From Phoronis australis (taxonomy: Eukaryota; Animalia; Phoronida), in assembly GCA_002633005.1 (NCBI GenBank), contig NMRA01000650.1, forward strand, positions 20,850 to 84,849: 64,000 nucleotides of DNA. Reading direction: 5' to 3'. The notes beneath the pieces were generated by a model. The model saw only the letters and a program-made list of their open reading frames with translations. It searched no databases and was not told where the DNA came from. Positions within the stretch are counted from its first letter, which is position 1; each line of letters begins with the position of its first letter. Shown here in pieces: positions 17,301-64,000 of the stretch. Position numbers and translations under genes: made by a program.

Positions 17301-20300
17301 TTTCAGCAACTTCAGCTTTAGTACTACTGTTGGTGCCTTGAAACGTTGCTATGCCGTTCTATGTCCTTTCAATTTTCTGGTCTGACACTTGGTATTCTAG
17401 TCTATAGCACTCAGCAGTATACTGTGTAGGCTACCAGGGCATGCAGCTGTTTTCTGCACAAACGTTTGTGACACCTCTTCTTCTTTTTGATCTACTGATC
17501 TACAGAGTTCCACAGTCAATCAGCTTTCGTCAGGAAGCTTTCCTAAGCTTCTTTAGGCTCTGACATCACAATTTTGTGCTGTTTGATAAACCTTGAATTA
17601 TACAGACATCACATTCCATGGGAGCAGCCATATTGAAGTAACTAAGCACAACAATACAATCTGGCTCTCTGATTGGTCAATTCACTAGAAAAGCGCCATC
17701 AAGTGGCAGGAATATGCATCATATTTTGTGCAACAAAAACACCTTTTTTTAAAAAAATGTGCAAGTGTAGACGTGGGAACTTTTTGGAATTTGATTTTTA
17801 GTTATATTATCTAGCCACATAGAAAAAACTAGGTTGCCCCCCCAAAGTACTCACAAGGGTGAACGCTATGAGATTTGGCCCACCGACTATACCTACATGC
17901 ATGTGCTCCTATAGCATTCAGTACATATGTGTACTTCTTTCAAGGCATACTGACTGTGCTGGAGCCTTACCGGAATGTTGATTCATTTTGACTTTCCATT
18001 AGTGATCGATATTAAAATAGTTTAAACAAGATGACACATCTCGCACTACAAGTCAGAATTTATTTGTCCACCCCACCCCACATCTGTATGTTTTTGTAGA
18101 CAGGCACCAAGTGCGTACTGATCTTTTACTTGTAAATATTTTACAAAATGATATAAACTGTGTTTCGAAACCTTGATTTTGCAAAATAGTAAAACAGCTT
18201 TGTTCCTTCGCAGTGAAAATGTAGACACCTGACAGTTGGAGGATGCGTTAGCTTTAACGAAAAACAATAGTATATCGAAATCTTCTACTGATTATCGTCC
18301 AAGCATTTCAACTGTCAGTGTCACGGCAGTCTTAGAGATTGATATTTTTTCAACCATTTTCACTCTGCGTTTCAGAAGTTGAAAGGTTTATATATACCCG
18401 TGTTTTGTATGAAAATAACTTGACGTAAAACCAGTCATCATTCAAGCAGTCCGATCTCACTGTCCCTCGATACATTTCTCCCAACTCTAGAGCAGTGAGG
18501 ACTGAGAAAGGGGTGATCGACTGCCGCGTTGTAATCACGTGGACATTAGGATGCTAAACCATTTAGATATTGAACCCCAAAAAGTGACCGATTTGAGTGG
18601 GAGCAGTTTCCATGGAAAGTTAATGTACTGCATTTCTATTGGTGTTTGGAATTGACAAATGTTGTACACATTTTGCAATGAAATTGTGTACTCCAAAATG
18701 AGTTTTTTGTGGAAAATCAAATAGATAAAGGTTCTATTTTGTTGGTAATTTTGTCAATAAAGCCCCTTAATAGTTTTTTTGTTGGAACTGATATGCGCTT
18801 CCTTCGTAAGGAGGCAAGTTGTAAAACTTTTAACCATCTGAGCGACACGCCCCGGTAACAAGCCAGTTTACTTTTTCAAATAACAGAAAAACGCTGCTTT
18901 AGGCCCTATATGTAGATCTTTGTACTCTTTCACCTTCATAAGGGTCGTATTCTCGTTCTAGTGATGATATACAAAAGGCAATGTGGAATTCACAACACCG
19001 TGTTGTGACAACAAATACACTGTACATGGTGGTCCTGGAATGTTCGTTACTTGGATCCTGGTTACTTTGCAGTGACAATGCCGATCCATAATTTCCCGGT
19101 GTGATGAACCACGTGTTCTTCAGTTACTGCCTTATGTTTAAGAAAGTTCAAGCATGATGTTCAACTACAGAGGACTTGGCCACTAGTTAACTCCACCCCC
19201 TCCCCCAAAACAGCTGGAGCTCTCAGTACGTGAGCGGAGCATCAAAGCGTATTCGGACATATAGGAACGTTTTACGTAATTATGCATGTGCCGACAGCCA
19301 TGAATAATTCGAAGCTATTTGAGATCTACATGAAACAAATATATTCATTCGGTTACGCTATATAATCCTTTCAACAACTATTTAAAGTCCGATGCCATTT
19401 TATTCATCTATTATAAAAATGCAACGTTTGCACAAACTCCGTCTTCCCAGCTCCACTACAGACTTTCGTTGCGCCCGTTTCGGCACTGTCTTTGTCCCAG
19501 GTATTGCACCGGCCCCCTATTTGGATTCAAGGTGGTCTAGGAAAAAGCACACATGCGAATGTAGTTTTTTAGTGCCTCAGATTTCCAGCGCCCCATGCGC
19601 TGGATCACCGGTTCGGGGACGAGATACTAATATCATAATTGCGGGGATGCTCAAACAATGTGTAGATGGCACTTGAATGTATGAAGCAATGTAATGACTA
19701 GGTGGCGATAGCACATGTACACTGGGTGAAATGTAATTCGTATTTATTTGTAATTATTTTCAGGTTATAAAAGCAGTGGAAGATGGTGACTCTGCGCCTC
19801 TGCAGAAATTGATCAAGAATAAATGGAACCTTAACCAACCACTGCGGAGAGATGTAAGTATGCATACATGAACACTCCCCTAAAATGAACCTTGAAAATA
19901 TTTTTCGCAACCGTTGCCTTTCAAATTAGATGACTTTATGTTGAATATTATATGTGTCGCCAAAACATGTTAACCATTTTTTGTCATATTTGATATGATT
20001 AATCGATTCCATAACTTTGTTGTCTATTAGTTACAATAAAAACATTTAATTTTTTTCATTTGTTATTGGGTTTGACGTACACGTAATTTGATTTCAAATG
20101 ACCTCGAGGTTCCCTACCATTAACATGAATATTCATTTCTCTATCTGATCACTTTTTGGACTTTTGCGCTTTCCAAGAAAAGAAGTCTGAAGTCCTCCTC
20201 TCGCGGACCACCAGTTACCGAAAGAGCTAGTGTTTGCGTTAAAACGTTATTATCAATTGCATACTGAGTATAACCTGCGCAAAGACAGAACGGTATTCCG

Positions 20301-23300: not shown

Positions 23301-26300
23301 AGTAAATGTGATGGTTTTAGTTGGTAATGTACATTCGGTCATGGCAGACTTGAACCTCAAATTTGATAAATTTGCCTGTGTTTTGTCAAGCTCCATGCGG
23401 ATATCAAACAGGTTGTGTCCAATGTACATGAAGACCTGACGAGGGGAAGTAAGAATTTGATTTTTTTTCAGGATATAAGCTTTATATCCTACTTGAAAAA
23501 TATGGTGAAGTTAAATTATGATAGTTTTCCAGTACTAATAAAACAATTCCCTATCGATCTAAAATGCTGTTATTGATTTAAGCTTTGATAATAACAAAAG
23601 TGGTTTGCCTTTTTTCGCAGTATCCCTTCTTCGCCTTTCTCCGGCTAAGAAAGTGTTACCAGTTTTGTCTGGCTCACGCGACGAAGTTGTCATTCAAGAC
23701 TATGGCTTGGGTAGATTGAAGATGACCATTATTACAATTTTATATAAGCTTGATCATGTAATTGGATACGGAAAAGTTTGACCTACACTGATCAAACCTT
23801 TTGAGAACCTACGCTACGAAACGCGGATGACATGAACAGAAGCATTGCTTATTGTTTGTTTTTGTTTTATCATTTGTTCAATATTTTTACGAAATTTATT
23901 TATCCAAGCAATTATATTTTTAAACAATGCTTAAAATTTTGGTCATTGAAAAGGCAAAACTAATAATAACTCGTTTTATGTCCGCATTTTGTGACCTAGC
24001 CAAGATGGCATCAAGCCGTCACGAAATTCAGGTTTCAAGAAATTAAGTTAAACCAAATGCTTCAAATTAAGTTTTAGGCCGTCGAGAAAATGTTGAGGTT
24101 ATGATTTTACCTGCGGCGTTAAGTAATTCCAAATTTCAGGTCGCATAATCGAGTTCTTTCTGTTTGGTGTAACTGTATTTTTCTCTACCGCCATTGAAAT
24201 CCTTTAGAGCTTCGAAATAATATCCAATCCAAGCGGCTTCCCATTACCGGGTAATACCGGATACACTGTACGTGCCATATAATTTTGCACAATATAGCTC
24301 AACCTCGAAACGACTCGTGGTCCCAACATGCATGTCGCATGGGGCTACTTATCCTTCGGAGACATCAACAGAATCTGGGAATTTGCTTTTAAACATTGAT
24401 ACAAGAGGGGTTCCTTTGGAAAACGAATTGGTTCTAAAGCAGAAGATGTGTGTGATCCGCTGTAGACATCGTAGATGTCAATTTGAAACTACGCGGTCGC
24501 TTACGGGATTCGATGTCTCCGTGGACTACGACACACTTATTACACTGCGATTCGAAACATTGGTCCGGTTACCGGTATTAAACGCATCTTGCACTGTTGA
24601 AAATTAAATTATTTGATGGAAATTAATGGTGGGGGCTTGCCAGAGCTGTTGGCGGTTTATTGGTTTTTGTCAAAAGTTAAGAGTGGCGATTAGTAGACCA
24701 GTGGACGCTTTTTACAAAACGTTTCAAAGGTAGAGAATAGGCGCAAACTCGAATACGGTCGTTTTCTGAATATTTGCCTATTAAAAAATCAAAAGACTGC
24801 AATAGCAAGAAATGATGCAACACCATATTTTTGTCCAACGCACACCACCACGGCGTGAATGTGTAGGTTCGTTAACATCCACGTGTTTTGTATTCACCCG
24901 CAAAGTTTCTTATTCCATTTGGCTTACGTTCCAGTCGGAACAATCTTTTTTCCAAGCGAGTTTTAAAAATCAGTTGCATAGTCGACTGGTGATCTGGGAA
25001 GTAAAAATTGGCATGGTGTGTGCAAATAGAAGAATAAAATGATCGCTCAAAATTTTATGTCTGCTTGTTTAAAAAATAAGTTGCAATCGTTACTGTACAT
25101 GTACATGTAGAAACTAAAAACTTGTGTGCTGAAAAAGAGGTCGTTTGCCTATTACTGGATTTAGGGTTGCAATTTACTCGCTTTCTGTCTTTTGCAAAAA
25201 AAACAGGACGCGTGGTCAAACAGGCCGTTACTTTACATTTCCGAACCATGTTCCGCTGCCAGGACTCGACCGTGCGCACAAACAACAAAACCAAGTAGTG
25301 TCGCAATCGGAACTACTATCTGCATAGGCGTCGCACCATAGGGGTTTTGGGGGGGGGGGGCAGTAGCCCCCCCCTGTTTTCAGTACTTCGCCACCCATGG
25401 CCTACGGTCGTTTTCCAAGACAAAGTTTGGTAAAATTATCGTTTCAGAATTATTGGAAATGTCGCTGTTTTGTGACGTTTTATCACGTGCTCGGAATATT
25501 CCTCGGCACATCAGAAAATTTGCAAAATTATACAAAAATACAACATTTCAACAAAACGCGTCAAAAATCCATTCCTCATTATTTCATGTTTTTGCAATAC
25601 CTGTACATTTACAAATGTTAGACATTTATAGCTCCGTTCTCACTTAGTGTCCTTTTGAACTTAATTTTGCAACAACAAAATTATTGTCAGACCCACATGA
25701 ATTGCTTTATATTTGCCAGGTTTCTGCCGAGAGGTGAACATGTAAAAACTCAGTACGTAATGTTGAAAATTCAAGGTCGCATATTGCGACTTGACACGAG
25801 TAGCCAAAATCTCAGCTCGCATGAAAAGTTGGGTCTGTACAGTAGTACTATAGTACGGTGTCGAGAATGAATGGCAGATATACATGTAGTGATATACGTT
25901 GCAGATATAGGATATCATAAGGGGGGGTGACATTTTGTCAGGGGCAAATGCGACCACGCCTGCATCGACTTACCCAGGATAAACCGGAATTCGAATCTCC
26001 TACTGAAAACCAACCACTAAAAAAGTGAACAGGCGGTCTGAGACTCAAAACCAAATTAAAACTGGGCTCATTGTTGAATCTTGTCTCAGCGTATGTTCAT
26101 TACGGCGGTTAATTAATGAACTCAATATTTCTTCACGCCCTTGCTGTTTTATTTTTGAAGCAGGCACACCTAAAACAAACACAATGACAGTGGCTTGATT
26201 TGTATATTGTGGCATCTTTGTATCAGATTTTGATAATTGTAGTAAGACGCAGTATTGTACATTGTTGACGTTCAATTACATCTTTAATTATCGATTTCCA

Positions 26301-29300
26301 ACTTGTCTTCTCGTAAAACATGGACAGATGTTCATGTTACGCATTGTACTTCTTGGGAGAATTTTCATGAACGATGAAATTTTAAAGATTTACTTACAAG
26401 TAGATGTTTTTCAAACAGGCAGTTGTTTTAAGGTTGAACATGTTATTATAATGTTCGGTATGGGTGCCATGTTCTATTACGCATTATTTTTTATTTATTT
26501 TGTCCATTTACTAACCGTGTGGTCGAAGTGGCCGTCCGCAAGACGAGAAGTAACACCAAAGTATGACTTATGTTAGACGTAGATTTTTTGTACCCCTCGT
26601 TGATTTGTCATAAAACAAATCGTGATCTTCCTTTGCATATGAAATACTTTGAGAAATCATTTTTTTAACATTTCCCTTTTTAAACACCATCCTAGGGTAA
26701 AATATCGACCATCTTAAATTTCTGCTACATTGATGCCCTGCAATTCCAAATAAGGAGACGTGTTTTGCCTTGTGTGTTGACATATGGTATTTTGGAAATT
26801 TGGAAATAAAAGAAAATGCTCTGACATGAACAGAAGTTAAACATATTTACAAACAAACCCTAAAAAGACCAGGTGAGCAGGCTAAATTCTGTTCATGTGG
26901 TAGAGAATTACTTCCAATATTTTAATTTAGCTTGTTTATCGGGTTCTAAGCCTCTAATGAAAGACATTTTGGAAGTTAATAGCTAAACATTCTTTGGACG
27001 TCAACACTAAATTTCATATGACTGAAATGTTCAAAACCAGATACATATTTTAGCATCAAATGGCTTCTGAACTAAATCAAGGAACGCTATTGTGATCGTT
27101 TTAATCGTGTTGAGAAATAAACATTGAGTTCACAATACATTAGTAACCATTAGAACAGAGCATCGGGTTTAAAGATCAATAATTGGCCCATGTCGCTTCT
27201 TACTTTACAAGCGTAATTCCCAGACCCGAGTGTTCACTAATTACATGTACCTACAGCAGGGGGAGAATCACTCGCAGTGATTAATTTCATGACCCGCTTT
27301 CATCATGAAAAGACAGCCACGCAACCATGACAAGAACATCCTTTTTTAAAACCACAATTGCGTCATCACAGTTAGCTAATATTCTCTGCACGTTAGAATG
27401 TTGCAATAATAAAACTGTACAGACTCAAAGTCTCATGCAACCTGAGGATTTTGCCACCAGTATCAACTTGCAATATGCCGATTGGAATCTCTAACATATG
27501 ATTAGCGAGTTTTTATATGTACACTTCTGGCAGATACCTGGCAAACATCTAGCAATTGGCGTTGCTCCTTTCATCACTTAGTTGTTGCGAAATGAATTTC
27601 AAAACAACACTAAAAGAGAACAGTCTCATTGATGTCTTTGGTGGTAAACACACGTCACGTGTGAGTATGAAATAGTGCAGAATACATCTTTGACGCGTTT
27701 CGTTGACTAGTATTTTTGGATACTTTTGCAAGTTTTCAGAAAGGCTGAAAAAAGTTCTGGAACACAACAGAATACGTGATCACAGGTCACAAAACAGCGA
27801 CGTTTCCAATAATTCTGTCACCATTAACATAACAAACTATCAAACTATTTGATGGGAAAACGTATTATGTTGAGATTATCCAATTACAGTATCCCAGACA
27901 GCATCGCATTGCTACTGTACTCTGCTCGGTCCCGTTGTTTGAACGCACGGTCGACGTAAATGCTGAGGATCAGCCTGTTTGAACATATTTCACATTGTTT
28001 CTTTTGATCGCAAACGACATCAAACGCTTGGATTACAACCCTGGGCTCACTAATAGCCGAACGGTAGCCACGACCTGTGTTTCAGCAGACTAGTTTGGGT
28101 TGCCAACTATTGCAAATAAGACGCGACATTTATTGGAACAAGCGCCAAGTCCTCTACAAATCGCCCCCTGTAACTCTTGATCATCTTCAATAAGGCGCCA
28201 ATAGCTTTGGCAAGCACCCACCTCTCATTTAACTCTCTGAAATTGATACTCAAATCTGCAAGACGCGTTTAAAAAGCGGTAAACTGATCAAAGTTTCGAG
28301 TCGCAGTGTTTAAAAGGGGACTGTAGTCAAAATAATGTTGCAGTTAATCGGTTCAAACATACAAATAAAACTCACATTTGCCTGACTTGCGTGCCAAACT
28401 AAAGCCAATTCGAATTCATGGTCAAAACACTGAATTCTGAAAGCGATCGCTGATTGGCTGATGCGTCAGTGACGTGAACGGCGGGGTATCGGCTGCTTTA
28501 CACATTCATTGCTTATGTCATATTTGAAGAGTTTACATCGTAATTTATNNNNNNNNNNNNNNNNNNNNNNNNNNNNNNNNNNNNNNNNNNNNNNNNNNNN
28601 NNNNNNNNNNNNNNNNNNNNNNNNNNNNNNNNNNNNNNNNNNNNNNNNNNNNNNNNNNNNNNNNNNNNNNNNNNNNNNNNNNNNNNNNNNNNNNNNNNNN
28701 NNNNNNNNNNNNNNNNNNNNNNNNNNNNNNNNNNNNNNNNNNNNNNNNNNNNNNNNNNNNNNNNNNNNNNNNNNNNNNNNNNNNNNNNNNNNNNNNNNNN
28801 NNNNNNNNNNNNNNNNNNNNNNNNNNNNNNNNNNNNNNNNNNNNNNNNNNNNNNNNNNNNNNNNNNNNNNNNNNNNNNNNNNNNNNNNNNNNNNNNNNAC
28901 TGGATGGCTAGAGTCCACATTGCCCTCGGCACAGTCACTGACACCAGTTGCACCGGCAAATTTTCGTCTGACGATGACGATGACTGGGTATCACTTTGTG
29001 TTGCCTCGGCTCAAACAGGTATCCCTGGTGTCCCGACATTTCACACTAAAATTTCTTATTCCGACAATATGAAAAACGCTACTTGATTGCACGCTAACAT
29101 ACTGTAGGACAATGACTTTGCCCCCGCCAAATACGTCACGAGACTAAGCAGCGCTCCAAGCCGATAATTTTTTTAGCTTCGTTAGAGAATATAAGTTTAA
29201 TTTTTGGTGTTGAATTATTTGTGAAATTAATCAACAATTCATAGAAAACTATCTAGAATTTATTCAGAATAAAGTACAGTTCCCTTTTAATGTTTGTAGT

Positions 29301-32300
29301 GGATGTCGTTAAGGTCAGAGTTACGGTTCCGAGATAGGGATCGGGGTTAGGGTTACGGTTCTGCTCTTATCCGTCTTGAAACTACGTGGCACTGGTGAAC
29401 GAAACGTTGCTTTTAAAAATAGCGTCTTGCCATAGGCTACAGTTTTCACGTGTACACGCGATCAATTGATACATTTGCCTATACTTGAATATTTTTAAAG
29501 GGGCATTTTCTTATCACAATTAACCAATTAAAGAGACCATGGCCAATCACCATCAAGTTATAATTCTTCAATTTGAGTTTTTTGAAATTTGTTTGACATG
29601 CAGTCGTTCTAAATGGGGTTTTGGACAAGGTTACAATATGGAAAATTTGGTCGTTGACATCAAGCGACTTCTAAGAACTGACTGTGAGCACATACAGTAA
29701 GCCCATTTATCATATGTTGGAGTCAGACTAGAAATTGCGTTTTGACTACATAGTTTTTTTCTTAAAATGTATTTCAAAATTTTTGGAATGTTTTGATTTT
29801 TCTGTAATTTTTTAAACAAGAGGAAAGTGAATTCCTTTGTATTAGATGTTGCGTGGTGGTACTTTCACGACAATTTGTTTAAAAGATATATTTGCCGAAC
29901 TTTCGCGTTCCATGCCTCTTTTATAAGTTTACTGACATACCACCACACATTTTACTTCTTGGGTGATTTTAGTAAACATTGAAATTTACAAGATTTATTT
30001 AGATCATTTCGAAAAGGCAAATGTTTTACCGGTGCAACATGTTATCATTGTTTTTGGTATGGAGGATATGACTCTGTGACACTTAATTTTGAATTTGTGT
30101 ACATTATTTATACGTCTGTTTTCTATATGTTTTCCAAGTAACCGTCGGGTCCAAGTGGCCGTCGGCAAGTAGAGGCGTAACATCAAAATGCAGCTTATGT
30201 TGAATTTGACATTTTTGTATTCCTTGTTTGCATGTCATAAAAAGGTCGTTATCGTTCCGTACTGAATATGAAAGTCTTGGACACCGCATATTTTTTACTT
30301 TCCGTTCTTTACGGAATATCAAAATAAAATGTTGAATAAGGTAAATCAACGATCATGTCAGTATTTTATACAAAATAGAAAATGGTGTCCATGCCAAATT
30401 AGAACATTTAGAATGTCAAACGAGTGTCAAAAAACTCAAGATGCAACCAGTTTCATGATATTTGTCATGGTCATAGTCTCTTTAATTGGCTCCTTTTGAT
30501 AAGGAAATGCCCTTTTAAATATATTCAAGAACAGGCGAATGTATCAATTTATCGCGTGTACACGCGAAAACTGGCCGGCAAAGCGCTCTTTTTAAAAGCA
30601 GCAGTTCACTTGGCCAGGCCACTGCCTCGACGTCTGGAGACTCAGAACAGCAGAACAATGCGTTTGCATTTTTGGCAAAATGGGAACTACGTGATGTATT
30701 GACTTTGCTGAACATCAATCTTGATAAGAGGAATGGTTTTGGTAAAGTGTGTTTAATTTGTAGAGAAGAGTTTGTCCTGTTCCAGGACGTTTTCTCACTT
30801 AGCAATTTGTTCAATACCATTGTCAATAAGAAGTTGAATTGTTAATTTCCTTAAACTACTTCACACTTCAGTTGTATTTTAATAATAACCTAATCCAATA
30901 TCATTTTTATAATGTATTGGTGTTCTGCCATAAGTCTATAATTCTATTCCCGATTGTTAATGACCCAAATTTGTTAGAAACTATTTTCGACCTCTGGGAG
31001 AAGTGAAACTGGACTTATAATTTAGTTTCACAGTGTTTTTGAATTGATACACTCAGCAGGTATTCGGGTAGACATACTAATAAAGCTAGGCGACCCCGTA
31101 AGTTTTACCATAGATTATAGACAACTATCTGTACTATAGTCTATGGTTTTACCCATATAATCGCTGCTTTCATATAGAGCACATTGCTGTCTATTACATC
31201 GTATTTTATGTAAAAAATATTTTCCGGCAATCTACATTTCGTCTTGTTTAGCTGGCTAAAAAACAAAAATTCAATTAATTCCTTTACTCTCATCAAATTG
31301 ATCTCATAAAGATTATTATTAAGTTTGAATAAAGTCACGTTATTGTCAATAAAAGTGATATACTGTAGCTTGGTTTAGCTATAACTAGTCGTCCAGACTT
31401 TGATAAAAGTGTTCATATTTCTAAGTTCATGTATGTCTTCGCACTGAGAATTATTAACATTAACGAACACACTACGAGAGTGACGTGACCTTGTTCTTTA
31501 AAATGATGATCTATACAAAACCACGAGTAATATATTACCTGGTAAACAAAATAGATTTGGTAATTGTGTGTACAATTGTGGTATTTCAACCTTTGCATGG
31601 CGAGTAATAAAAATTCACAGTGAAGTTAGTGATTGTGAAGTCTTTTACTATAACTTGTTCATTGTTTCTGCAGGGCCGCAGAGCACTTCACCTGGCAGCA
31701 GGGAAGGGCAGGACGGAGGTGGTGAGGGTGCTGTTGCAGGGTCGGGCCGATGTAGACGTGCAAGACGAGGTAATAGAAACTACTTGAGACGACATTAGGA
31801 TTAAGACAATGTTATCTTTGTTACAAAAGCTGTAGACTATCTGAAGTTTAAATAAATATTTTGTGTGTAAATGCACTTTTCATATCTCATGATTTCAACA
31901 TGTATTTTTCAATCTGTACCGTGTACATGCATCTTAAGAAACAGTGAGGTTTAAATTGTGTCAACACGTTGATATTTTTTGTATTCTTAATGACAATCGT
32001 CCATTCAACAGTACAACTTTATATTAAAAACGAAGCCAGTAAACCGGTGAATAAACACAACATGGCGGGATCGCTGTCAAGTTATGCAGGAACTCTGTAA
32101 TTTCTGGCAATTGACGTCTACAACATGTTCTGTTGTTACAGCGACGTTTTAAAATTTCCTGCAACACTTGAGTGTTGAAATCATTACAAGTATTGTAGCG
32201 TCTTAGAGGTGTCAGTAATGTTTCATTTATGTCACCTTACAAGTTCACTTTCCCCCTTGTATGTTAATTAGCTCCAAACGTTGATCGTCCATTCACACAT

Positions 32301-35300
32301 CTCCATTATATATTACAAAGGTGTGCTGGACACCGCTGTACTGGGCAGCAGTGGAGGGTCAGACGGACACAGTGAAACTGCTGTTGGCCAACAAGGCCAG
32401 TGTAGATGTACGTGATGTGGTAAGTAATGACACACAGGTTGTTTAGTTGAACTAGTTGTTTACAAAAGGATAGTTTAAAATGTTTAAGGACATATTTCCT
32501 TGATCTTTTTCTCAATTTAATGTCCCAAAAGCGCGACAAATTAAATGTTGTCTGCTTAACATTCGTGAACCGCCAAAGCTGCGTAGACTAGTAAAGACAA
32601 AGCAGTGTGACTTACCTGTACAGGTTAAATGATATATAAGGTAATTAAACTGTCCCTAATTCGTTTGAACGAAACGAGCATTACACCTCGATTGTCCAAC
32701 ACTTTACACAAGTTCACTTTCCGCCGTGTATGTTAATTAGCTCTTAACGTCGATCGTCCATTCACACATCTCCATTATATATTACATAGGGGGGCCAGAC
32801 ACCGCTGTACAGGGCAGCAGGGCGTGGTTATACACAGACAGTGGAGGTGCTGCTGGCCCACAAGGCCAGTGTAGATGTACGTGATAAGGTAAGTAATGAC
32901 GCACAGGTTGTTTAGTTGAACTAGTTGTTTACACACATGAAGGTTTAAAATGTTTAGGAACACATAATGTTGATATATTTTCACAATTCAGTGTCCTAAA
33001 ACAATGACAAGTTATATGTCGTCTGCTTTTCTTGGTGAAGAACCAAAGCTGCGTAGTTGTAACATGTTCTGTAACGTTTTAAAATCTGTAACGCTTGATT
33101 CTTGAAATCATTACAAGTATTGTAGCGTCTTAGAGGGTTCAGTAATGTTTCATTTATGTCACCTTACAAGTTCATTTTCCCCCGTGTATGTCAATTAGCT
33201 CTAAACGTTGATCGTCCATTCACACATCTCCATTATATATTACATAGGAGTGGGGCCGGACACCGCTGCACTGGGCAGCACAGCGTGGTTATACAGACAT
33301 AGTGAAGGCGATGTTGGCCAACAAGGCCAGTGTAGATGTACGTGATAAGGTAAATAATGACACACAGGTTGTTTAGTTGAACTAGTTGTTTACACAACCA
33401 TGATGAACACACAACATGTGACTTGACTGAATCATTCAATGATTTAATTAATCGTGATTTATGATTTCATTTTAAACATTGACATTTTTGCTGCATTCCA
33501 GCGAATGCAACTGATTTGAGAAGCCAGCAATGAATAAATCACTGCTTTACCGGCTTTAGGTGCAATGAAACTAATTGACGGGACACCGACCGAGGCCGTG
33601 TGAGCTAATGCTAAATTTCGTGTTTGCTGGCAGAAACTGTTGCGAAACAACCCGATTTCCATCCCACTGACAGGTGTTAGGGGAATCTTTATTTACATTT
33701 ACATAACTCAAATAATGATAGTCAATGTACAACTTCTGCCCTGACGGTGCTGTGGCCAAAGCGCGAACCTGAATTCGCGGCCCCCGACGCCAAGTAGACT
33801 TGCAGTTTCGTGGCTAATTCACCAACATAATCAGGTGCGCATTACTTTAGCTCACTAGTATAGTATTTTCTTGACTTGAAGTTTAGTTTCCAGTGAACTT
33901 TATTAGTTTATGTTCGTGATGTCTGATCAGTTTCCGAGCCACTGGTCGGGATAACGGTGGAGTCAATCCGACCGGCCGCGACGGGCCAGGATAACAAGCG
34001 TTTTGTGTTAAGAACTAAGAAAATCACTAGTCTAAACAACACAGATCTAGGCTCTCCTGTCTGTATCTCACGGAAAATAGTTCGAAATTATCTCCGAACA
34101 GACGCCAAACTCCTGCTAGGACCTCATTGGCCTGCCGAACTTTGTAGGCTACGGTGTGTCCAAATACCAATAAATCCATAAGAGCGAAATAAAACAACAC
34201 ATTTTTATAAGAACTCGGTGTATTTTTAAGGGTTTTACATCGAAGTTTGATGATTTATTGGTGTTAAACGGTGAATTCAAGCGATAAGCTGACACCAGTA
34301 ACCCTTGTTGTGAACTGCTGAACAAACTGCGTGTGAAACCGATGACGTCATCGGATAATTTTAACTCGTCCGTCTTCCGTCAGGTGTCAGGTAACGCAAC
34401 CGTACGTGTCGTTATGGAGTAGAACTACTCGATCTAAATTGATACAAATTAAGTTGTTTTTTTTGGGTGGCACGCTCCTTTAACTAATTATAAACAGTTT
34501 TTAGTTCACCTAGACTTGCACAGTGACTTGGTTCTTTACTTGCATTTCCACAGCACTCATTAAATGAATGTCACTCTGTTGTAATGTATAAGATCAAGTT
34601 GTTATATTTAAAAAACTTTTCAATCACGTGACTACATCAGATCAGAGGAACTTTTAAAAAATCCCGCACAAGTTATGTCTGAGCTTAAATGTCAGGTTTT
34701 AGTCTCGACCTGTTGAGTCACACCCTTCATAAGTATTGCAACTGATGTTGAAGTTTGAACTGGAAAAGTATAAAACTCGACGACTTGTTCACCCACCCAC
34801 ATCGCTATGTATAATGCTGATCAACATTATCTATTTTTGTTCATTTACTGTAGTCGGGTAACACACCGCTGCACGTGGCATCTGAAGGTGGACATACAGA
34901 GGTAGTGGAACTACTGTGCAGGGAAAGCGGAAGCGATGTCAATACCGTCAACAAGGTATCGCAAGAGTGTTGTACTTCTTGATTAGTTAAGACAGCAATA
35001 AATGTGTTTTAAATGGACTATGAGTTCGAGAATCTATTCATTCGTAATAAATATCAAAAATGATCTGTCTCCTACTTACAAAGAATCTCTTCTTCACTGG
35101 ACGTACCATCCCAGAACACTCAGTGGATCAAAGCAGCTTGTCTAATCGTAATAATTTGGCAGAAATAAAACATACCAAACGCGCCATCAATGGTCGAAAA
35201 CAGCCTCAGGTTCAGATTTCCTCACTTCATTAATTATAACACATGCAGGTTTTTATTCGGTTCACTGCAAGGAATCAGATGCGCGTTTAGGAAGGAAATC

Positions 35301-38300
35301 TTGGAAGGTTTTAGTCTTGCCGTTTAATATAACGATAATTTAGCAATCCATTTACCCATGTGTTTTATCCCCATGGCTTAACTGTACATGTATTTCAACC
35401 CCACCACACAACCGTGTTTGTTCCTGCCATGGTCGGATTTACTATTGTATGATGTTGAAATCTAGGGCGTGACTGAGGCAAAGTCACGACGCGCAAAAGT
35501 CCTTTTACCACGGTGCCAAGCCGAGCACTCTGAGCCTGGTAAACGAGCTGTAATCCACAATACATGTAAATCCAAAGTCTGTGTATATATGTGCAGCTTC
35601 TTTAAAATGTGTATACACTGAAGCTGAATTGTTTACGATTTGTTCGTGGATGTTGTTGTATTAAACAGTACCGTGTTTTTCACCTATCGTCTGCTTCACT
35701 TGTCTCAAAAATATGGTATCTGTTTTATGTTGTTGATCTTTCGTCTTGTTGTTATGTCAGCAACTTTTATTGTTTATTTGCGGAAATTTTAAAGTTATCA
35801 GAATGTATTTCATCAATTCAATGCGGGGCTTGTGTTGTCGTACCTGATTTCTTTTTGAAATATCTTGAATAGGTCTGGACGTGATTTGTGTTGGTGGCCA
35901 CGTTATCAAAAGTTTCATGTGTCAAACATACATTAACCAGTCCAAATATCTCATTTACTGCTTTTAAAATGTACAACAGAAACTTCAAAATGATGTGGGA
36001 ACTTATCCGAGTTCCACCACATTGGAGAATGAATACACCTGATGTTGGGAACTGATTTTACAGTTTTGTGGGTAGTGCTCACACGGTACTCTGAGTTTGA
36101 GTATTTGTTCATTTATTAACAAAGTATTTCATCAAAAAGACCTACATCTTGCTTTAAAACAACTCCTGTACATATTTAATCTCAGTTATTAAATCGAAGT
36201 GTCATTTATTTCTTTATAAGCCATGAAATGTGTTGGTGAACGCCATTTTCATTCAAACTGTTATTTTTGCTCTATGCAGTGTTCTTTAAAGTTCCTCTCG
36301 CGCAAGCCAGTGATGTCAGGATATTTTGCATTGGAAATCCCTTCGTAATCGCTACATGCAGTAACAAAACTACAATTACCGACTGCTTGTTATAAGTGAC
36401 ACGTTTTTTGCCCTTATAATATCAATACAACTATTTAAGTTCGCCAAATTCAAGCTGAAAGAGTTCAAATTTATGCCGGAATATTTTGCATAAAAATAGA
36501 TTAATTACGAGTGGGTGCCTGCTTTAATAAAAACCTTGAAATAGACAAATATATCACCGAGATGGTATTTTTATGTTTCAAAAGTCCAGGCTGATGCCCT
36601 TCTCCTGTTGTTTAAGCAAAAGATGGCGATATGTGAGTCTCGATGGTGTTCATGTGTCGGTGAGGTTGACTTTACTTGGAAACATGGAATTGATAGGATT
36701 TTATATTGATTACCCAAATTCAAAAAAACACGACTTGAGTAGAGCAAAAACTGTTAATTTTAGATCGATACAACGAGAAACAAAATCAAGGAGTAGAATC
36801 CTCGCTTTCCTAGGTTTTTACAAACTCCCAAGGGAATAACGGACTATTTCGTTTGCTCAGTTGCAGTTGATTAGGCGAATTTAGTTGGTCAAGGTGAATG
36901 CACTTTTGATCATTTTAATCATTTTGTTTTCCTTCCGACTTAGGCGGATATATTTGTGTACTAGTTGTTGGACATCTGGATGAGCTTAACAGTATTTTGT
37001 CTCACTCTTAACGTAAATAATGCAAATGACAAATCTGATTGAAAATTGTCACAATCAGTCAGGCAGTGTACGCTGTGTAAAAATAAAAACTAGGTGTCGA
37101 ACACACCTTGGTGCGTCGTCAAGCACTCGAGAGCTATCATTCATAATCTGAGTAAACAACGGGTTTTTGCATCACGTGTTCAGCCAAGCCAGCTCAGTGT
37201 ATTCTACATTTTTAAGTAGTTATAGTTATAGTGTATGATATATTGGTAAATAAAAATCCAATACAGTTGGCAGTCGACTAAATTAAAAAAATTCTTGCGC
37301 TTGGGCGTTACGACACTCGTAATCTTCGTTCGACAAAACGTTGTAGGGTCGTTTCTTCTGTTGCTGCAATCATTTCACTCGTTTTTTTAGGAGACCCAGA
37401 TTCTCCGCTTTTTATCAAGTTGTCACTATTCTTTCTCCAACACTGACAACTATGACAGGAGGTGATCTAAGTAACACTGACTATTTGTCACGGACTAAGT
37501 TATATTGTTATTTTTCACAGTGCAGACTCTTTAACAACACAACAACCGTAAAGTAAGTGGCAGTGTCTCTTGTTTACCGTAATGGCAATTATGGCTGTTG
37601 TCATAATTTATGAAAAAGTTAGTTCATTTTTATGTTTACGCTTGTCAACAGTGTCTTCGCTCTCCTCACTGGTCCAAAGTCATATTATTGAAATAACGCT
37701 ATAATACGGAAATTTAGTGTGGGTTTTTAAGGTGTCATACTGGTAACTGACATTCGCCTACAAAAAAGACGTAACTGACATTCGTCTTCGACTTTGTCAT
37801 CCAGTTAATAATCCTATATTTAATCAAGAACTGATTTTTCGCTAACTAAGCAACAAAAAACATTGTGATGGGTGTGCTCACTTCGGGCGCCAAATACCGA
37901 CCCTGGGTGTCCTTTGATGAAACCGCTACATAACTTTTCAATAAATCACAGATTCTGGATTCTCAAGTTGCACATTCTGTACCAATCTGAAGTAAAACTG
38001 AAGTTTGATGTTTCTGCTCAATTTGACTCAGGGTAAAGGAATTGCACGCCTTTCTTATTCTCCGCCAACGAACGCTTCCGGTTTGTGCATACAAAAATAC
38101 AGTATTGACGTTTTATGAAGTCAAACACGAAATTGTCTGCAACTGCATTCCACTCATTGTGTATGTCCAATAAAATTCAACCTAGGCAAAATGATTGTGA
38201 CTCGTAATGTGTCGAGTATATATTGGGTTAGAAACTCCAAATATTGGTATGTGACACCCCCAGTTCGCACGCAAATCTGTTGAAGAACGCCTGAAGAACA

Positions 38301-41300
38301 TCGTGCAATCTTGTCCATACTGATTTTAAAGCGAAAACTTTCAAATCTGCAAGCTCTGCCAATTTCACTGAGTCGGCCGTCGTGAACAGGATTAAACGAT
38401 TTCGTGAGTAAAAATGGACTTTTCAAGTACAATTTGGTAAACGTTGACGTGTTGCTTTAAAAGCAAAATTCTGAAGATATACCTATCACGATGCAAGAAC
38501 ACTCAGTTTAAGAGTTGGTCGATTGCTAGTGGGATTTTTGAGCAATTTTTTATACAAACGCAAAACTGAAGATGTGCTTGGGTCTGAACAATAAGGAAAG
38601 AATAAGAGACGATGTGACGTGAAATTTAAAGAAGTTGTCTACTTAATGCTAATTGAAATGGATTATCAGGGTGTATTGTACAGTCATGTTGTTCTTAAAT
38701 TGTGTGTTGGGCTAGTCCTTGAATTAAAATTAAAATTAAAACGCGGCTTGATTATTGGATCATCTAAAATTTGAAAATGCATATTGGTTTCATGTAGCGG
38801 AAGACCTCAGCGGTGAAAAGAAGATGGTCGGCGACATGAACTATTCCGCGAAAAAACGCTGGTGCGGCACTTTCCGTTGAAAAGCTTGACTATTACAAAG
38901 TTATTGTCAAACTGGTGCTCGATAAAATCAAAATCAGTCGAAATGGTTTAATTTTTAAAGTCTTTGTTGCAAACTGCCCATGTGGTTCTAGTATCCGAAA
39001 ATACTTACTACATAAAATCTTATTTTCGACACCCTTTTTTTACATTCTTTTCGCCTTTCTTGCCAAAAGCGATTTTTCAACCGTATTTGACCCTTTTCCC
39101 TGAGCGTATGATTACCGGTTGTCATCGGTTATTTCCGTACCCACATTTCCGGCTCATCAGTTCAGGAACTTGTCCTGAACGCCGCCATTTTTTCCTTGTA
39201 ACTGAATGTGCTATGGCTTGCTCGAAAAGTCTTCATTATATTGTTTTATTAGTAATATATCGTGATTCGTTTGCATATGTAGTGTATTTATAGTTTGTAG
39301 TTTGTGGTCGTTGATTTTTTGGAATGTTACGCGTACTTAGTATCGATGTTAAAATAGCATTGGTGTTTAGTTCCTTACGTAGGCCGGTCGAACCTAGGAA
39401 CCAATATGGGTCGAACCTATTTTTTTCAGTTTTATTTTTTTCCTTGTTTTGAAATAGTACTTTGCTATCATCGGAAAGGTAGTACATTCTACTCAGTAAA
39501 AATCGAAAAAGTATCGAAATCGGGGCAAGCACTGTACAGTTATTGCACGTTTTGTGGCGAAATTTGGGTCACTTTGTTTGGATCGCGTCGGCCATATTGG
39601 AGGACAACGGGATGAGTTACGAGTTTAAAAATTTGTGTAATTTGTTTTCGCCAACAAATTACGGTAACATTTAGTTAGACATAACTTTACTTACTATTCT
39701 TTACGATTTAGCAGTGTTCACCAAATTCCAGCCTCGCAGTTGTTACTCATTAAGTGACAAATGTGCTCACAATTCCCGTTAGACTTCGTCTCATTTCTGG
39801 CGGCACCTACAATGTCGACTTTTGCTGAACTGAAAGGCATGTTCAATCGGCTACTTTGTAATTTGTGAAGATTTGACGTTGATACATTTTGGCAAACGTT
39901 GCTACAAAAAAGAAACTTTGTTCAATTTTTGTGTTTTTTGTGTTTGTGGCCAGCGACCAGTTAGGCCTAAGGGTAGTCTTGGTGCAAAGCTGCCGCCCGT
40001 TCAGTAACGCTGGGACCTCGCTAAAAAGCAAGACTTCGCGAGAATACGTGAGATTTCGCCGTGTATTTTGAATAAGAACACGTGACTTTGACTAGGTTTT
40101 AGCAAGGTCCTAGCGTAGGTCATAGCGTCTACTGAACGCACGCCTGTATAGGCCTACTTACAAGCTTTATTTTGACTATAGTCTTCACTGGTTGCTGGTG
40201 ACTGAGGCTAACTAAAGTCTGCCGCGGCAGTGTTACACAGGACTAACCAGCCCGTAATTTCATGCAAGTATCCGAAACTACCCTTGAATATATGCAGCAT
40301 TTATCAGTTGACCATTTTACTTCGACAAAACACCTTGCAACCGCATGCATTTACCGTTCGCCAGTGTCTGGTCTCGATCCGCACCGGGTCCGATAGGCTG
40401 CGGTCCCGAGTCTGGCAAAATAATTGCTGTCAAAGTTTTTTCGCCACATTTCTTCGGCAAATTCGATAAAATTGTCCGTAGTTTGATTTTATTAAAATTA
40501 AGGCGCGCTGTCGATCATTTTATCCCCGTTTGCTTGCTGGTAACGGAACAGGCACTGCTCGAGTCGCACTGACGGCGTTTTCTCGGCCTGGGTTCCTGAA
40601 TGAATTGTACTTCCGGGTTCGCGGCAACTTCAAAATGGCGGTGTTTCTTCGGGTGCGAATCGTGAGTGGTGCGTTCATTTAAACTGTTTTCGAGTACGGA
40701 TCGTGTATAAGTTATGGGGTAGGTACTTCTTGGATCCGTATAACATCTTCTAACCATGTAATAAGGGTTAACAACGCGTGAGACAAGGACTTAATGTGTC
40801 GATGATGTACCTGATTAATGTGTTTGATTTTTCTCTGATATCTATCTCTTTTTAGTTCTGACTGAAAGTGTCTCTTATCTCAGTTCGGCTAGAGTAAACT
40901 CTCCACTAATCCCGGGGGACTTGATTCAAATGAATAATAACTCGATCGTTTTGGTTTTGCTTAATTATTTGTCATTTCTTTATACAATTTGAAGTTTCTG
41001 CGTCACGCAATTCCACAACCGTGTTCAGCAAATGACCCGTACTATGTAAGGCGATGTCGTTACTTTGGCTAACCAATCAGGACAAAAATTTTATGTAATG
41101 GTTAAGGTTATGAAGTAATGCTTCTCTAAAGAACAATAAAATGGCAAGCAAACTATGCAGCGAATTCCAAAACGGCGAACACTGAACACTGTCTGGGTGC
41201 GGAGCACCTGGGCTGTATGGGGTTGTGCGATGTGTTCACACGTATCTTGTTTTCCTTAACTTAATCATCATTATTTTCATATTAATAATAACATTGTGAC

Positions 41301-44300
41301 GCGCATTCTGTTACACGTCTTTGTGCTACGTTCATTATGGCATTATAGGCAAAGTAAAGAACTTTTACAGAGCACTTGAAAATAGAAATGACCCATCCTA
41401 TACAGCCGTGGCCTTTAGTTTGAGTAAATGGACATACAGTACAATAAGGTCATGGCCTTGTATTCCGGGGATTACGATACATGAATGTTTACGGAAACAT
41501 TGACAATCCGTACGAGTTGCAGACATTAGACATACTCTGTGAAGTGGACCAATAGGCTAAATAGTATTGGAGTTTTTAACAAATGTATTGAATATGCCCT
41601 TAATTAGAAACTAAACGCTCGGCTTGGTTTCCGGGAGTTGTACATGTACGTGACTAATCGATTGCTACCGGTACTCAGTCGTGCATGTCCAATGGTGGTC
41701 GGCGACATGGAATATTCCGAGAAGAAAGATGCTGGTGTGGCAACTGCTAATTAAATACACGTTGATCAGAAAATTATTACTGAACATGTAAGCAGGATAA
41801 ATGAGAATCGTTTCACTTTGGTTCCTGGTAATTAACCGTATTGTTATGTTTGATTGTCCTTGTGGGTTTACTTTCCAAATCTTCACTGAAGGTGTTGTTT
41901 TTGACGCTCTGTTGACCAAGCGAAAAATCACTTTGTTCACTAAGTTCGTGGGAAGTGATGAATTATAACTAGTTCGTTTTTATTTCGGTTTAAGATATGT
42001 CAATGTTCGTTTACACTTTGCCTGAAATTGCTAAAGCATTGCCACTTACTCAACCCTGTCCAGTTACATTGTATACATGTATATAAGTATCTCGTTTCGT
42101 ACTCGTATTTGTTTATTTAAGCCTGTTTTATTTGATGTAGACTGGCGACACACCACTGCACCGTGCTTGTGAATATGGCCACCTGGATGTTGTGAAACTC
42201 CTCATTGAAGAGGATGGTGATGTCACAGTTGTCAACCAGGTAAACATGAATGTAAATGGAACTGTGTGGTAAGACACACTTTTACATGAATAGTGACCAT
42301 GTCATCTAACTTTGCCATAACTTTACCTTAATAGTGAACATGTCATCTAACTTTGCCATCACTTTACCTTAATAGTGAACATGTCATCTAACTTTGCCAT
42401 CACTTTACCTTAATAGTGAACATGTCATCTAACTTTGCTATAACTTTACCTGAATAGTGAACATGTCATTTAACCTTGCTATAACTTTACCTGAATAGTG
42501 AACATGTCATTTATCCTTGCTATATCTTTCCGATGTGGTGTTATCTTCCCGTTAGTAAAGTATCAGGTTTAGTTTTATTAGTTGTATCATGTAGTTGCAA
42601 AAACTTCTAAGGCTGTAAGGATGTATTTCATCATTTCAATGTTCATGTTTCGTTTTACACAGTGCCACGAAATATGTTGGTTCACGTCGGTTTCATTCGG
42701 ACTGTTAATTTTGTGCTATGCACTGTTTTTAATGTTCCTTCGCACAAGCAACATCAGACTAATTTGTCTGATTCATTAAACACCTTAAAATTGACCGAAA
42801 CTCTCTAAAATAGTAACCTTTAAGTCACCAAATGCTTGCTGTTATTTGTGCCTCGTTTTTTTAAAGTAAATATAGTTTTGTGTGCGAGTCTCTACATGTG
42901 TCGGTGAAGTTGGGTTTACTTTTAAATATGATATACATCTGGTGAAACAGTCTTGATCAGAGGCATTACTTGGGAGTGTCAGGACAAGAAATACATCCAT
43001 CATTGTCGCGGAAGTGTTGATAGAAATTGGTGCCCTTTATCTTGACTGATTCTCCTAGTTGTCTGTGACCGCAATTTATGAGAGATGTGTAAATTGAAAA
43101 TCAAAATACTGAGTTAACTCCGCCACTCAGTTTGTCTGGCAGTGTTCATTCGTGATTCATTGGTCTACCCTGATTAATTTGTAGACAGTATGATGCAGTT
43201 ACCTCTCGGGCTGATCTACAGTAAGTCTATTTTGAGACCCCGTTGTTCTTAATCTAGCAGGGATACCCCGCCACTGAAATTGTCTGGCAGTGGATAATTT
43301 TGATACAGTAGAATTAAAATATAAAAAAGTACGCAAAAGTATGCGCATATACAAAGAAATACAACTTAATTTACTGTATGAATGAAGCATAAGACAAGAT
43401 CCTATATGACAATACTGGAGTAAGATTTTCCCCTGATGTTCTTTTTAGTTTGATAAATGCTCCACTACTCTTTATTAAAACGACTCTTTAGAGCAATTCA
43501 AATTTGTTGAACAGGCTTTCTAATCTTCTCAAAGGATGGCGACACTGTACTGCATGAAGCAGCTTGCAGTCTCGTGAATTATCGGTCAGTTGAAAAGTGT
43601 GGTTTTGCCCCTGTTGCCAATAATATAAAATAAAAAGTCGTCAGTTCTTGGCCTCAAGATTGAAAATTCAACTATGGTTGCTTTATCCTTTGATTCTGAT
43701 GTTCTCTTCAAATGAGCTATTGTCCCTTTTACCGATAGATTTCCACGACTGCCCTCCACGGAAAACATGTACTGACTATGTCAACATACATTTCAGTGGA
43801 TTTTAAGGTAGCGTGATTATATGTTAACATACTCAATTTTCTTAAGATTTGACTGTATGGCTGAAAATCCCATCTTCCCAATGTAGCTGCACGTGTTTCA
43901 GCTTGTCGCGAAATCAAAAACTTCTCCAACTTGACAAAAAGATAAACTTAGTCGAGTTTTGCCGCTGACGCCCGGCTTGCACTCAAGAAAATACCCCTGT
44001 CAACCCCTGATTGTCGTTGATATAAGCACGAACCACACTCTCACTTTTGCTCATTAATAGGACACTGTACCTGCCCAAGTAACACGAAATGCAGCCATTC
44101 ATCTTTATCCTTCCGCTTGCTGCGTTTAGGCGTATTTAGGCCATGCGCCTTGATTGTGTTTATGCGATGCAAAATGGCAAACATTGACGTACAATTAGGC
44201 AAATGGAAAGTACTGACCCTTGATGAAAAATATAATAAAAACATCCCGCTTACGAAAGGCACCTGGACCAACAAGTGCGTCTACACTGTACGTGCAAAGC

Positions 44301-47300
44301 ATTTGAACAGAATTTATTCGTTTGGCCTACATGTAAATACGCGCACATATATGAACGGCAATTGTTAAGTTAGGTGCGATGCGGAGAAACTTCGCTAACA
44401 GGGCGTACGATTGCCATTGCGGGTGTTGAATGTTGACTCCACACTGAGGTTGATCTCAGAAAATCCCTTCTCACCTTAATTTTAAACAATTAAGGGGACC
44501 CAAATCCAGCTTTCCTACAAATTTTACTTACAAGCTGTTAGACAAACTTGAACGCATACCTAGATGAATTGCCGAGGTGGTCCTTAATGAAAAATGTAGA
44601 CTTCAACGAAAACCTTGCAACTAAACGTGTAGAAAAATGGAAAGAGTTGTAGCTTCTTTTAATTTGATAACTGTGTGTGAATTGAAGCAACACGGGAATG
44701 ATTCGTAACACATTGATTTGACTTATGTTTACCCATCTGAAAATATCGACGACATTCTACGATTCATGAATGACTATTTCCAATTACTTACAAATTGGAG
44801 AATAATTTGCAAACCTGAAACATTTTCAACATGCATACACATCATTATAATCCTTACGCCATCCGCATATAGCGCAAATCCACAAAACGCGCAGGACTTA
44901 CTAACCCCTGTGCCAGACAAGCAAGCGTTTTGTCAACTTGCATGAAACATTGCGAATTGGTGCTTGGACTTAAACTAATCGCGCATTTCTCCAAATTTGG
45001 TGATTGCTAGTCGCAATTGCGGTCCAGATGATAGTACACTGGAGCTAGGCTGTAACGGCACTGAAATGGTTTCCACCTCGTAATTATAGTCACTGCTTTG
45101 CACTATCTAACAAATCAAGTCTCTCGTACTTCATGGGTAGGTGACTTGGGCACTGACAAACGCTACGTCGATTAATGTTGCAGTCAAAACGCTGACGGCA
45201 TGTTGGTCTTCCCCTCATTTCTTCTCAAACTTGTTATGTCCAAAAGGGGCCACAGCCTTACCAAATCCTGTTTGTTAGTATTTGGCATCCAGTTTTTATT
45301 TCAATTCGAACATAAATATTTATTTACTTTGAAAATTTGAATAAAACGTGAAGTATGCAAGAAAGGTAATGAGATGCTTAGAAATATCCCCTGAAACCTC
45401 TGGTTCGCTAGGTACTTTAAATCAATGGAAACAGTGGATTTTGAAGTTGATCATCTAGATTTTTGAAGTTCTTTAATCATTAAATTTAAAAAATTCTTAC
45501 CTCATGTCTTGGACTCTGGCCCACGGGGTCTAATCTCTAAGTAAAGATGTACTGACTATGTCAACAGACATTTCAGTGGATTTTAAGGGGGCGTGATTAT
45601 ATGTTAACATACTCAAATTTCTTCAGATTTGACTGTATTGCTGAAAATTCCACCTTCCCAATGTAGCTGCACGTGTTTCAGCTTGTCGTTAAATCAAAAA
45701 CTTCTGCAACTTGACAAAAAGTTTAAATTAGCCGAGCTTTGCCGCTGACGCCCGGCCTGCGCTCATGAAAATACTCTCACTGTTTAAAATTATTACTCAT
45801 TGATAATACACTGTACCTGTACAACTACCATGAATGCAGCCATTCGTCTTTACCTTTCCGCTTTCTGCCTCTGCACGTATTAAGGCCCTTGAATGTATTT
45901 GGTTATGCGATGCAAATCAACAAAACGCGCAGCACGCTTGTAATTCTTTAGTTTCTGACAGATTTCAATCATCTGAGATGGATACGAGTAAATTGGAAAC
46001 GTTTCCTTAGCGAGACTTGGCGGTTCCGTAATATATTGTTAAATGTGTGTTTAATTTAAAATTCATTGTTTACTCAAAAGTACTGAAAATGTACCAATCG
46101 TGAAAAGAAAAACACTTGGCGGATGATCGATTACTAGTACATGTGGAATATTTGAGCATTCTTCTTTGAACAAACAGATTACATTACATTTTTATCATCT
46201 CGGTTTTCTTCTTGCACTTCTCTGACCCAGGGGCTTACATTTGTTTAGACGTTGTTGGATATAATGTTGCGCTTAACTTTATTTTGTTAAACTGGTAGCT
46301 GAACCAATAGTTGTAGATATCATTAAAGGCACATCGTCTCAATGCAAATGGCAGAAAATTGACTTAAAACACCACAGTAGGGTAGAGAGAGTGCTCTGTG
46401 TGAGGACGCGGATTTGTCGTTTTTCCGTGACTCGAGTTTTCTGAGTTCCGAACAAACTGCAGTGGGTCGTCAAGCGTTCTTGAGCTTTTAGTCAAACACC
46501 TTGTTAAAGGGACATTTCTTCCAAACTCACCGCTGACTTGGAAACTGACCCACAAAAATATTCTTCAACGTAGTGCCATCCGTTTTAACAATTGGGGAGA
46601 CCCTGCCAAGTCAGTTTCAATTAATCAGTTAATGGATTTAGAAAAAAAATGCCTACAGTGTATAATCTGGAGGAGGAAACTATTCCACGTGTGTTTTGTT
46701 ATTACTTCTAGCTAGGACCCACTAGCCCCCTCTGCCAGAACATCAAACAAATTTGGTGATTGCTAGTCCCCAATTGCGGGCCAGATGATAGTACACTTGA
46801 GCTACGCTGTAACGGCACTGAATTTTTTCCACCTCATAATTAGAGTCACTGCTTTGCACTATCTAACAAATCAAGTCTCTCGCACTTCATGCGAACACAA
46901 ATATTTAGTTATTTTGAAAATTTGACTAAAATGTGAAGTATGCAAGAAAGGTAATAAGATTCCCCTGAAACCCCTGGTTCGCTTGGTACTTTAAATCAGT
47001 GGAAACAGTGGATTTTGAAGTTGATCATCTAGATTTTGAAGTTCTTTAATCATTTTTTTAAAATAAAATGTAAAAAAAAATTCTTACGTTATGTCTTTCA
47101 CTCTGGCCCACGGGGTCTAATCTCTAAGTACATACTGATGCACTCAAATCTTTCACCCTGTTTATCTGGCTAAAAACGAAGTTCAAGTTGGTGGGCATTA
47201 TTGGCGTAAAATCCCAACTTATGAGATGAACAACTCGAGTTGAAGGCAATGAGTACACTAGCGCTACTCTCGAATGCGCAACTTATGGGATGACCAACTC

Positions 47301-63839: not shown

Positions 63840-64000
63840 GTAAGAATTATTGAGTTTTCATAGCGTGAATTAAAATCACCTTCGTGGCGTATACCGCTCT
63901 GTAGCCCTATTTTCTCTTAAAAGCAAGATACCAGAAGACAATTCAAATTCACTATAGTGAAACGCTTGTGTTTCCTAAGGTTAGTATGGTAGCTAGCTTA

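Follow-up and report, generated by a model that had tools for sequence, protein, structure and literature searches.

The window analysed here, a 64,000-nucleotide stretch of DNA from Phoronis australis, contains tandem ankyrin exons of one repeat each, and the binding face of these duplicable exons has probably been under diversifying selection; the evidence for this is good, though it comes from a small sample. The explanation that we favour, and consider probable, is that the exons are cassettes that have been exchanged among one another while the binding face of the protein, predicted to be a cytosolic recognition adaptor with about eight repeats and a ZU5/UPA-like module, came under positive selection.

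The three cassette exons, A, B and C, lie on the plus strand and are enclosed by a tandem unit of 2.7 copies. They start at 32321, 32790 and 33251, with start-to-start spacings of 469 and 461 nt, and each is a 99-nt, phase-0 exon between AG and GT that encodes a single ankyrin repeat above the Pfam Ank cut-off, which upholds an earlier note on this DNA that had described them as one-repeat duplicable cassettes. Exon A (32321–32419, 33 residues, Pfam Ank E 3e-8) has an AAG acceptor and a cysteine in place of Gly2, and it may be decaying. Exon B (32790–32888) also encodes 33 residues (E 1e-7). Exon C (33248–33349, E 3e-11) has tandem acceptors, TAG and then GAG, so that it may be 102 nt long (34 residues from 33248) instead of 99 nt (33 residues from 33251), and the apparent substitution at its first codon may belong to a 3-nt insertion. 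Pairs of cassettes are 64–67% identical in amino acid sequence and 79–86% identical in DNA. Three further exons of the same kind surround them on the plus strand: Z (31674–31769, 32 residues, E 1e-8), D (34854–34955, 34 residues, E 6e-11) and E (42141–42239, 33 residues, E 2e-10). All six exons are 96–102 nt long, bounded by AG and GT, and in phase 0. A search with exon C alone returned no significant homologue, and a 26-nt cassette motif had no match in metagenome contigs. A profile of the six exons found generic ankyrin proteins only, and among the 120 listed no repeat matches at least 19 of the 33 cassette residues.

The earlier note had reported an excess of amino-acid-changing differences among the cassettes, and a recount over the 33 codons reproduced its figures exactly. 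B and C differ at 14 nucleotides and 11 amino acids, with one codon that differs synonymously only; A and B differ at 21 nucleotides and 12 amino acids, A and C at 20 nucleotides and 11 amino acids, with two such codons in either pair. Codons 25–32 (KASVDVRD) are identical in all three exons, also as described earlier. The surface classes used for locating the changes were adopted before counting from Table 1 of PMC8415598, a source available to us in part. The exon numbering coincides with the consensus numbering (TPLH at 4–7), and the concave class of that table comprises positions 1, 2, 3, 8, 11, 12, 32 and 33. Amino acids vary among A, B and C at seven of the eight concave positions, three of the nine core positions, five of the nine convex positions and none of the seven basal positions (concave 7/8 against 8/25 for all others, Fisher p = 0.009). 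Variable nucleotides number 13 of 24 at concave, 3 of 27 at core and 0 of 21 at basal codons. Change is not confined to the binding face: 11 of 27 convex nucleotide sites vary, and dN/dS at non-concave codons is about 2.

The codon model behind the latter value uses a star tree of only three copies, ignores recombination and was applied to a locus picked for looking extreme; with these limits, it gives a dN/dS of 3.5 for the whole exon (p = 0.025, a result equalled or exceeded in 5 of 499 neutral simulations) and of about 10 for the concave codons (LRT 15–16), a value of the LRT that none of the 499 null simulations reaches. The concave signal persists when any single concave codon is left out, as well as when codons 1, 2 and 33 are left out together (p ≤ 0.0006), and it appears in single pairs (B/C p = 0.015, A/B p = 0.0008, A/C p = 0.0002). 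Simple pairwise counting over the whole exon is marginal (Fisher p = 0.08–0.22); the signal sits on the binding-face codons. The earlier remark that many changes fall on the ankyrin binding surface is borne out in the three copies, and dN/dS on the concave face is far above 1. Six positions are randomised in DARPins. The part of PMC8229355 at our disposal places the randomised positions on the concave surface.

The intronic surroundings of the cassettes are a mosaic. The conserved acceptor-side flanks occupy 32144–32320 before A, 32708–32789 before B and 33074–33247 before C; their last 82 nt are common to all three, with five or six pairwise differences (five between B and C), and A and C have about 165 nt in common, with 14 differences. 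In the 37 nt immediately upstream of B and C, which the earlier note had found identical, there are 0 differences, and this is the best-conserved stretch of the upstream flank of these two exons. On the donor side, the first 45 or so intron nucleotides (+1 to +45, 32420–32464 after A) are common to all three cassettes, with one or two pairwise differences; in the 47 nt after B and C there are two, again in agreement with the previous count. The introns after A and B remain homologous for about 120 nt further (+46 to +167, 32465–32586 and 32934–33056), and here 29 of 121 aligned sites differ. This divergence of 24% is as high as that of the A and B exons (21/99, 21%; p = 0.75), whereas the proximal flanks of the same pair are much closer to each other (8/129 sites differ, p = 6e-5 against the distal intron). 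The earlier statement that the exons diverge faster than their introns is correct for the proximal flanks (−82 and +45) and fails for the distal A/B intron; as the latter is as diverged as the exons, that framing overstates the case. Because the proximal flanks are alike and the distal intron is diverged, flank, exon and flank make up a conserved unit, and the pieces of the array are of different ages. The flanks look like sequence that has been homogenised with the exon as one unit, which extends from about −82 to +45 and encloses a variable core, and constraint from splicing could contribute to their conservation. Such a mosaic would fit conversion or unequal crossing-over.

The strongest alternative, although we hold it to be unlikely, is an ordinary recent tandem exon duplication under relaxed constraint, in which exposed sites drift neutrally, splicing preserves the flanks and synonymous changes are few by chance. 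The equal divergence of the distal A/B intron (24%) and the exons (21%) is what such drift would give, the probability of at most one synonymous change out of 14 is 0.09, and exon A looks partly degenerate. A concave bias is, moreover, generic among close ankyrin repeats: the concave face takes a fraction of 0.40–0.75 of the amino-acid differences between close repeat pairs in 14 of the 19 database proteins checked, the remaining five having no close repeat pair. Against relaxed constraint stands the rejection of the neutral model at the concave codons, which no simulation of 499 matched and which is robust to dropping codons. The basal surface, which is the most missense-tolerant one in human ankyrins according to the portion of PMC8415598 that was available, has no change in its 21 nt, and divergence at concave nucleotides is higher than in the intron stretch with the greatest divergence, both for A/B (11/24 against 29/121 in the distal intron, p = 0.03) and for A/C (11/24 against 13/128, p = 0.0001). 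For B/C the concave sites (5/24) are not above the flank from −82 to −38 taken by itself (5/45, p = 0.23).

Improbable, and more so than relaxed constraint, is a patchwork of conversion tracts donated by older paralogous repeats that had already diverged; such short tracts would bring several substitutions at once into the variable core and so mimic selection while the ligand stayed the same. Codons 1, 3, 11, 12, 14, 16, 19 and 33 do show two-position differences, the history of flanks and introns is mosaic, and related transcripts are many. Old donors, however, should also have brought in synonymous changes, of which there are merely 1–3.5 per pair, and the amino-acid changes are dispersed over separate positions of the face rather than gathered in one block.

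Expression of cassette exons was followed with three RNA read sets (X6, X7 and X8; about 18–19% of each raw run) and a contig set (X5), aligned to 25000–44500 at 85% likeness. The RNA is from other samples, each read is placed on the copy that it matches best, and alleles and paralogues look alike in these data. In the bins that contain Z, A, B, C and D, RNA depth is 15–65 in the mate orientation that usually marks plus-strand RNA and of 0–2 in the opposite one; exon E has a low sense-strand depth. Among the 15 joints listed, beside 127 further ones, C-like exons are joined to C-like exons by 25, 17 and 3 reads in X6, X7 and X8, respectively, C to D by 17, 25 and 1, D-like to D-like by 21, 17 and 0, and Z to C-like by 1, 5 and 0; the A–B and B–C joints of this copy are absent among these 15. 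The earlier note had raised the case of exons missing from transcripts. What is found is that related exons are spliced in sense RNA, while this copy's own A–B and B–C joints are not among the 15 listed. The C-to-C joints may represent allelic versions of these two joints, or paralogues. As this copy has a single D exon, the D-to-D joint comes from other arrangements (alleles, paralogues or back-splicing), and so does a C-like to A-like joint in X5. Back-splicing into circular RNA is a possible source of single C-to-C or D-to-D joints; taken as a full account, it leaves the differences among junction residues unexplained. Exon skipping was rejected as the origin of the Z-to-C joints, since reads are assigned to the best-matching copy. 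D-type signal is far lower in X8 than in X6 and X7, and depth ratios per Z of about 1.8–2.5 cassettes and 0.2–1.5 D exons are too rough for counting copies.

The X5 contigs add to the variety of repeats. Ankyrin junctions decoded by hand account for nine of the 12 rows listed (212 in all), and, as rows were listed for being different, they speak for variety and not for rate. Position 1 gains L, R and M through them, position 3 gains V, M and D, and position 33 gains R, E, L and D; Gly2 is kept, and in three junctions the turn is longer by one codon. One X5 contig departs from the alignment near +47 and returns at an acceptor flank after 151 other letters, and thus reveals the same conserved boundary in another copy. 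Two X5 junctions into D-like exons have one additional codon ahead of the first residue of D, where TAG stands in this copy (34845–34856); this may point to a 3-nt acceptor shift. In X8, sense-strand reads are numerous over the acceptor flank at 32144–32313 (111 at 32210); we interpret them as transcripts from related copies that are unspliced or retain the intron. In the least likely alternative, the assembler, working on a polymorphic genome, would have strung alleles or paralogues of a single exon together as A, B and C. This view can draw on a scaffold gap of 350 N at 28549–28898 and on the listed DNA runs, none of which contains more than 0.29 of the words sampled, but an artefact of this kind, which the earlier note had raised, is very improbable because the copies and the introns between them differ, the introns hold unique sequence, RNA reads link cassette to cassette, and the X5 contig just described passes from a cassette donor flank into another acceptor flank.

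The window holds six full ankyrin repeats and two probable caps, all on the plus strand; no further full ankyrin repeat was detected on either strand. Exons beyond Z–E were assigned by splice signals and phase. Upstream, a probable N-capping ankyrin exon (19764–19853, 30 residues, phase 0–0) was read by eye and has no Pfam match. Downstream of E follow a probable C-capping exon (53112–53195, 28 residues, phase 0–0), which has AG and GT boundaries and an open frame with no Pfam match, a probable linker exon (56615–56654) of phase 0–1, which fits the next exon, and a probable 851-nt exon of phase 1–0 (59285–60135) that would encode a highly diverged ZU5(-UPA)-like module. The connection of this module to the ankyrin exons is inferred from phase. 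Its Pfam ZU5 match (E 0.0013, 19.3 bits) lies under the cut-off of 21, and in a profile of nine canonical ankyrins it matches weakly over the second ZU5 and the beginning of UPA (5.7 bits, the best of 500 shuffles scoring 4.0). None of 1230 candidate relatives of the exon was significant; it had no relative among 1.84 billion representatives and none in metagenome contigs, and one PDB match was at chance level. A structure model from the single sequence had a pLDDT of 35 and was unusable. The motif H-F-S, which we take to be the self-cleavage motif, was not seen by eye at the end of the ZU5 part. Two intron segments, at about 55540–56760 and 62830–63930, are duplicates of 68–69% identity, each with a small linker-like exon close to where it ends, the second of these exons (63821–63839, plus strand) closing the downstream segment. 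This suggests that the linker and the ZU5-like module are themselves tandemly repeated past the window, and the gene likely continues beyond it. No exon for a STAND NTPase (NACHT or NB-ARC) or for ROC-COR was recognised among the selected open reading frames of the window that were scanned with Pfam. Given the tentative ZU5/UPA-like domain downstream, a cytosolic adaptor is a likelier identity for the protein than a receptor of the NLR or ROCO class.

Exchange of cassettes combined with positive selection could work as follows. The one-repeat exons are in phase 0, so that gain, loss and reordering would keep the frame. Misaligned copies would be able to recombine or convert through the near-identical arms, one running from −82 to the acceptor and the other from codon 25 to +45, and such exchange would keep scaffold and flanks alike while cassettes are copied. 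Selection for new binding surfaces would then fix amino-acid changes at the β-turn and the first helix, which the codon statistics support. A cytosolic sensor or adaptor might pass ligand binding on to a ZU5-UPA-type module. By analogy, the likeliest driver would be a fast-changing non-self ligand, from a pathogen or in allorecognition, at about even odds. Of the diversifying recognition receptor built from ankyrin cassettes that the earlier note had proposed, the concave diversification is supported, together with transcription and splicing of related exons, and an adaptor is the likelier class of protein. It is conceivable, but a long shot, that the conserved arms are dedicated recombination substrates and that high-rate, even somatic, swaps give individuals or cells surfaces of their own, a natural DARPin-like library on a ZU5-type adaptor.

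Recognition proteins with shuffled repeats are known from fungi (ANK, TPR and WD NLRs) and from brown algae (LRR and TPR exons). In the available text of PMC4986451, the fungal ANK-NLRs of the Podospora Pa_3_8560 type are polymorphic in repeat number and have five positively selected ANK positions, all but one of the selected or polymorphic sites map to the concave face, and high internal conservation (HIC) is defined as 85% amino-acid identity over 100 residues. The cassettes share with the HIC-ANK NLRs, as far as the accessible parts of PMC4986451 and PMC13449251 describe them, ankyrin repeats under concave-face selection, which in the fungal proteins extends to the β-hairpin. Near-identical repeats in varying number are reported there with unequal crossing-over proposed as the cause, and crossing-over is also proposed here. 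The part of PMC13449251 available to us states that NLRs with highly conserved repeats occur in animals too. Unlike the fungal genes, the present one has each repeat in a separate exon with conserved intron flanks, followed by a ZU5-like module, its three cassettes are 64–67% identical in amino acids and so fall below the 85% criterion, and no NACHT or NB-ARC exon was found within the window. For comparison with the NLR polymorphism in repeat number, the joints of D-like with D-like and of C-like with A-like exons reveal that other arrangements exist, with alleles and paralogues indistinguishable.

The Ectocarpus ROCO-LRR and NB-ARC-TPR receptors resemble the cassette gene in having one repeat per phase-0 exon of equal length, in diversifying selection at ligand-facing sites (here in three copies) and in local exon rearrangement, to which we liken the cassettes, all according to the part of PMC3341825 that was available; the same text restricts shuffling in the Ectocarpus genome to LRR and TPR genes. 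A search for inverted repeat exons in the introns, such as that source describes, gave no minus-strand ankyrin match by protein HMM or nhmmer. The present repeats are ankyrin rather than LRR or TPR, and neither ROC-COR nor NB-ARC was seen in the window. The cassette gene works like the fungal ANK-NLRs and the Ectocarpus receptors and is a member of neither group, since it differs in repeat type and in level of identity and no NTPase exon was recognised in it.

Canonical ankyrins have 24 ankyrin repeats followed by ZU5, ZU5, UPA and death domains. Like them, and like adaptors of the PIDD and UNC5 type, the present gene has ankyrin repeats and then a ZU5(-UPA)-like region. It differs from canonical ankyrins in having about eight repeats, a highly diverged ZU5, of which one weak ZU5(-UPA) match is seen in a gene whose 3′ end is beyond the window, and repeats that are recently duplicated and fast-evolving; of four canonical ankyrins examined, three lack a close repeat pair and the fourth has a single one. 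Fusions of ankyrin with UPA-ZU5 occur in expanded immune-type proteins of marine invertebrates, as stated in the accessible part of PMC8195603. Another parallel is with the spider MaSp2 and flagelliform silk genes, where repeated exon–intron units with homogenised introns have been proposed to aid unequal crossing-over; these encode structural proteins with coding repeats homogenised as well, and the part of PMC9779670 available to us describes no diversifying binding face. Full-text searches of the literature, with most subscription journals outside their scope, returned no case of an animal ankyrin-exon cassette. New here would be an exon-level ankyrin version of repeat shuffling in an animal, with a ZU5-like module in place of the NTPase; if true, it would be a candidate for an antibody-free diversified recognition system, with variable sites that coincide with the positions randomised in engineered DARPins.

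Several other features were noted in the window, which has 38% GC and long introns. Stretches at 43535–43633 and 52433–52531 begin ankyrin-like after an AG acceptor and then run into stops or frame changes, with no Pfam match; they are possibly dead repeat exons. A broken LINE-type retrotransposon (47745–50383, minus strand, RVT_1 E 8e-5) lies in the intron between E and the probable C-capping exon, and a second LINE remnant with a weak zf-RVT match lies at 5025–6270. Interspersed repeats in introns, at 33500–34760 and 38950–40600, have very high RNA depth, on the plus and the minus strand alike. Downstream of the ZU5-like exon, at 60330–60570 and 61320–61490, an imperfectly inverted element rich in palindromes was found by eye, which may be a MITE, and a 54-nt minisatellite of 8.7 copies at 1742–2211 is open for about 130 codons on both strands.
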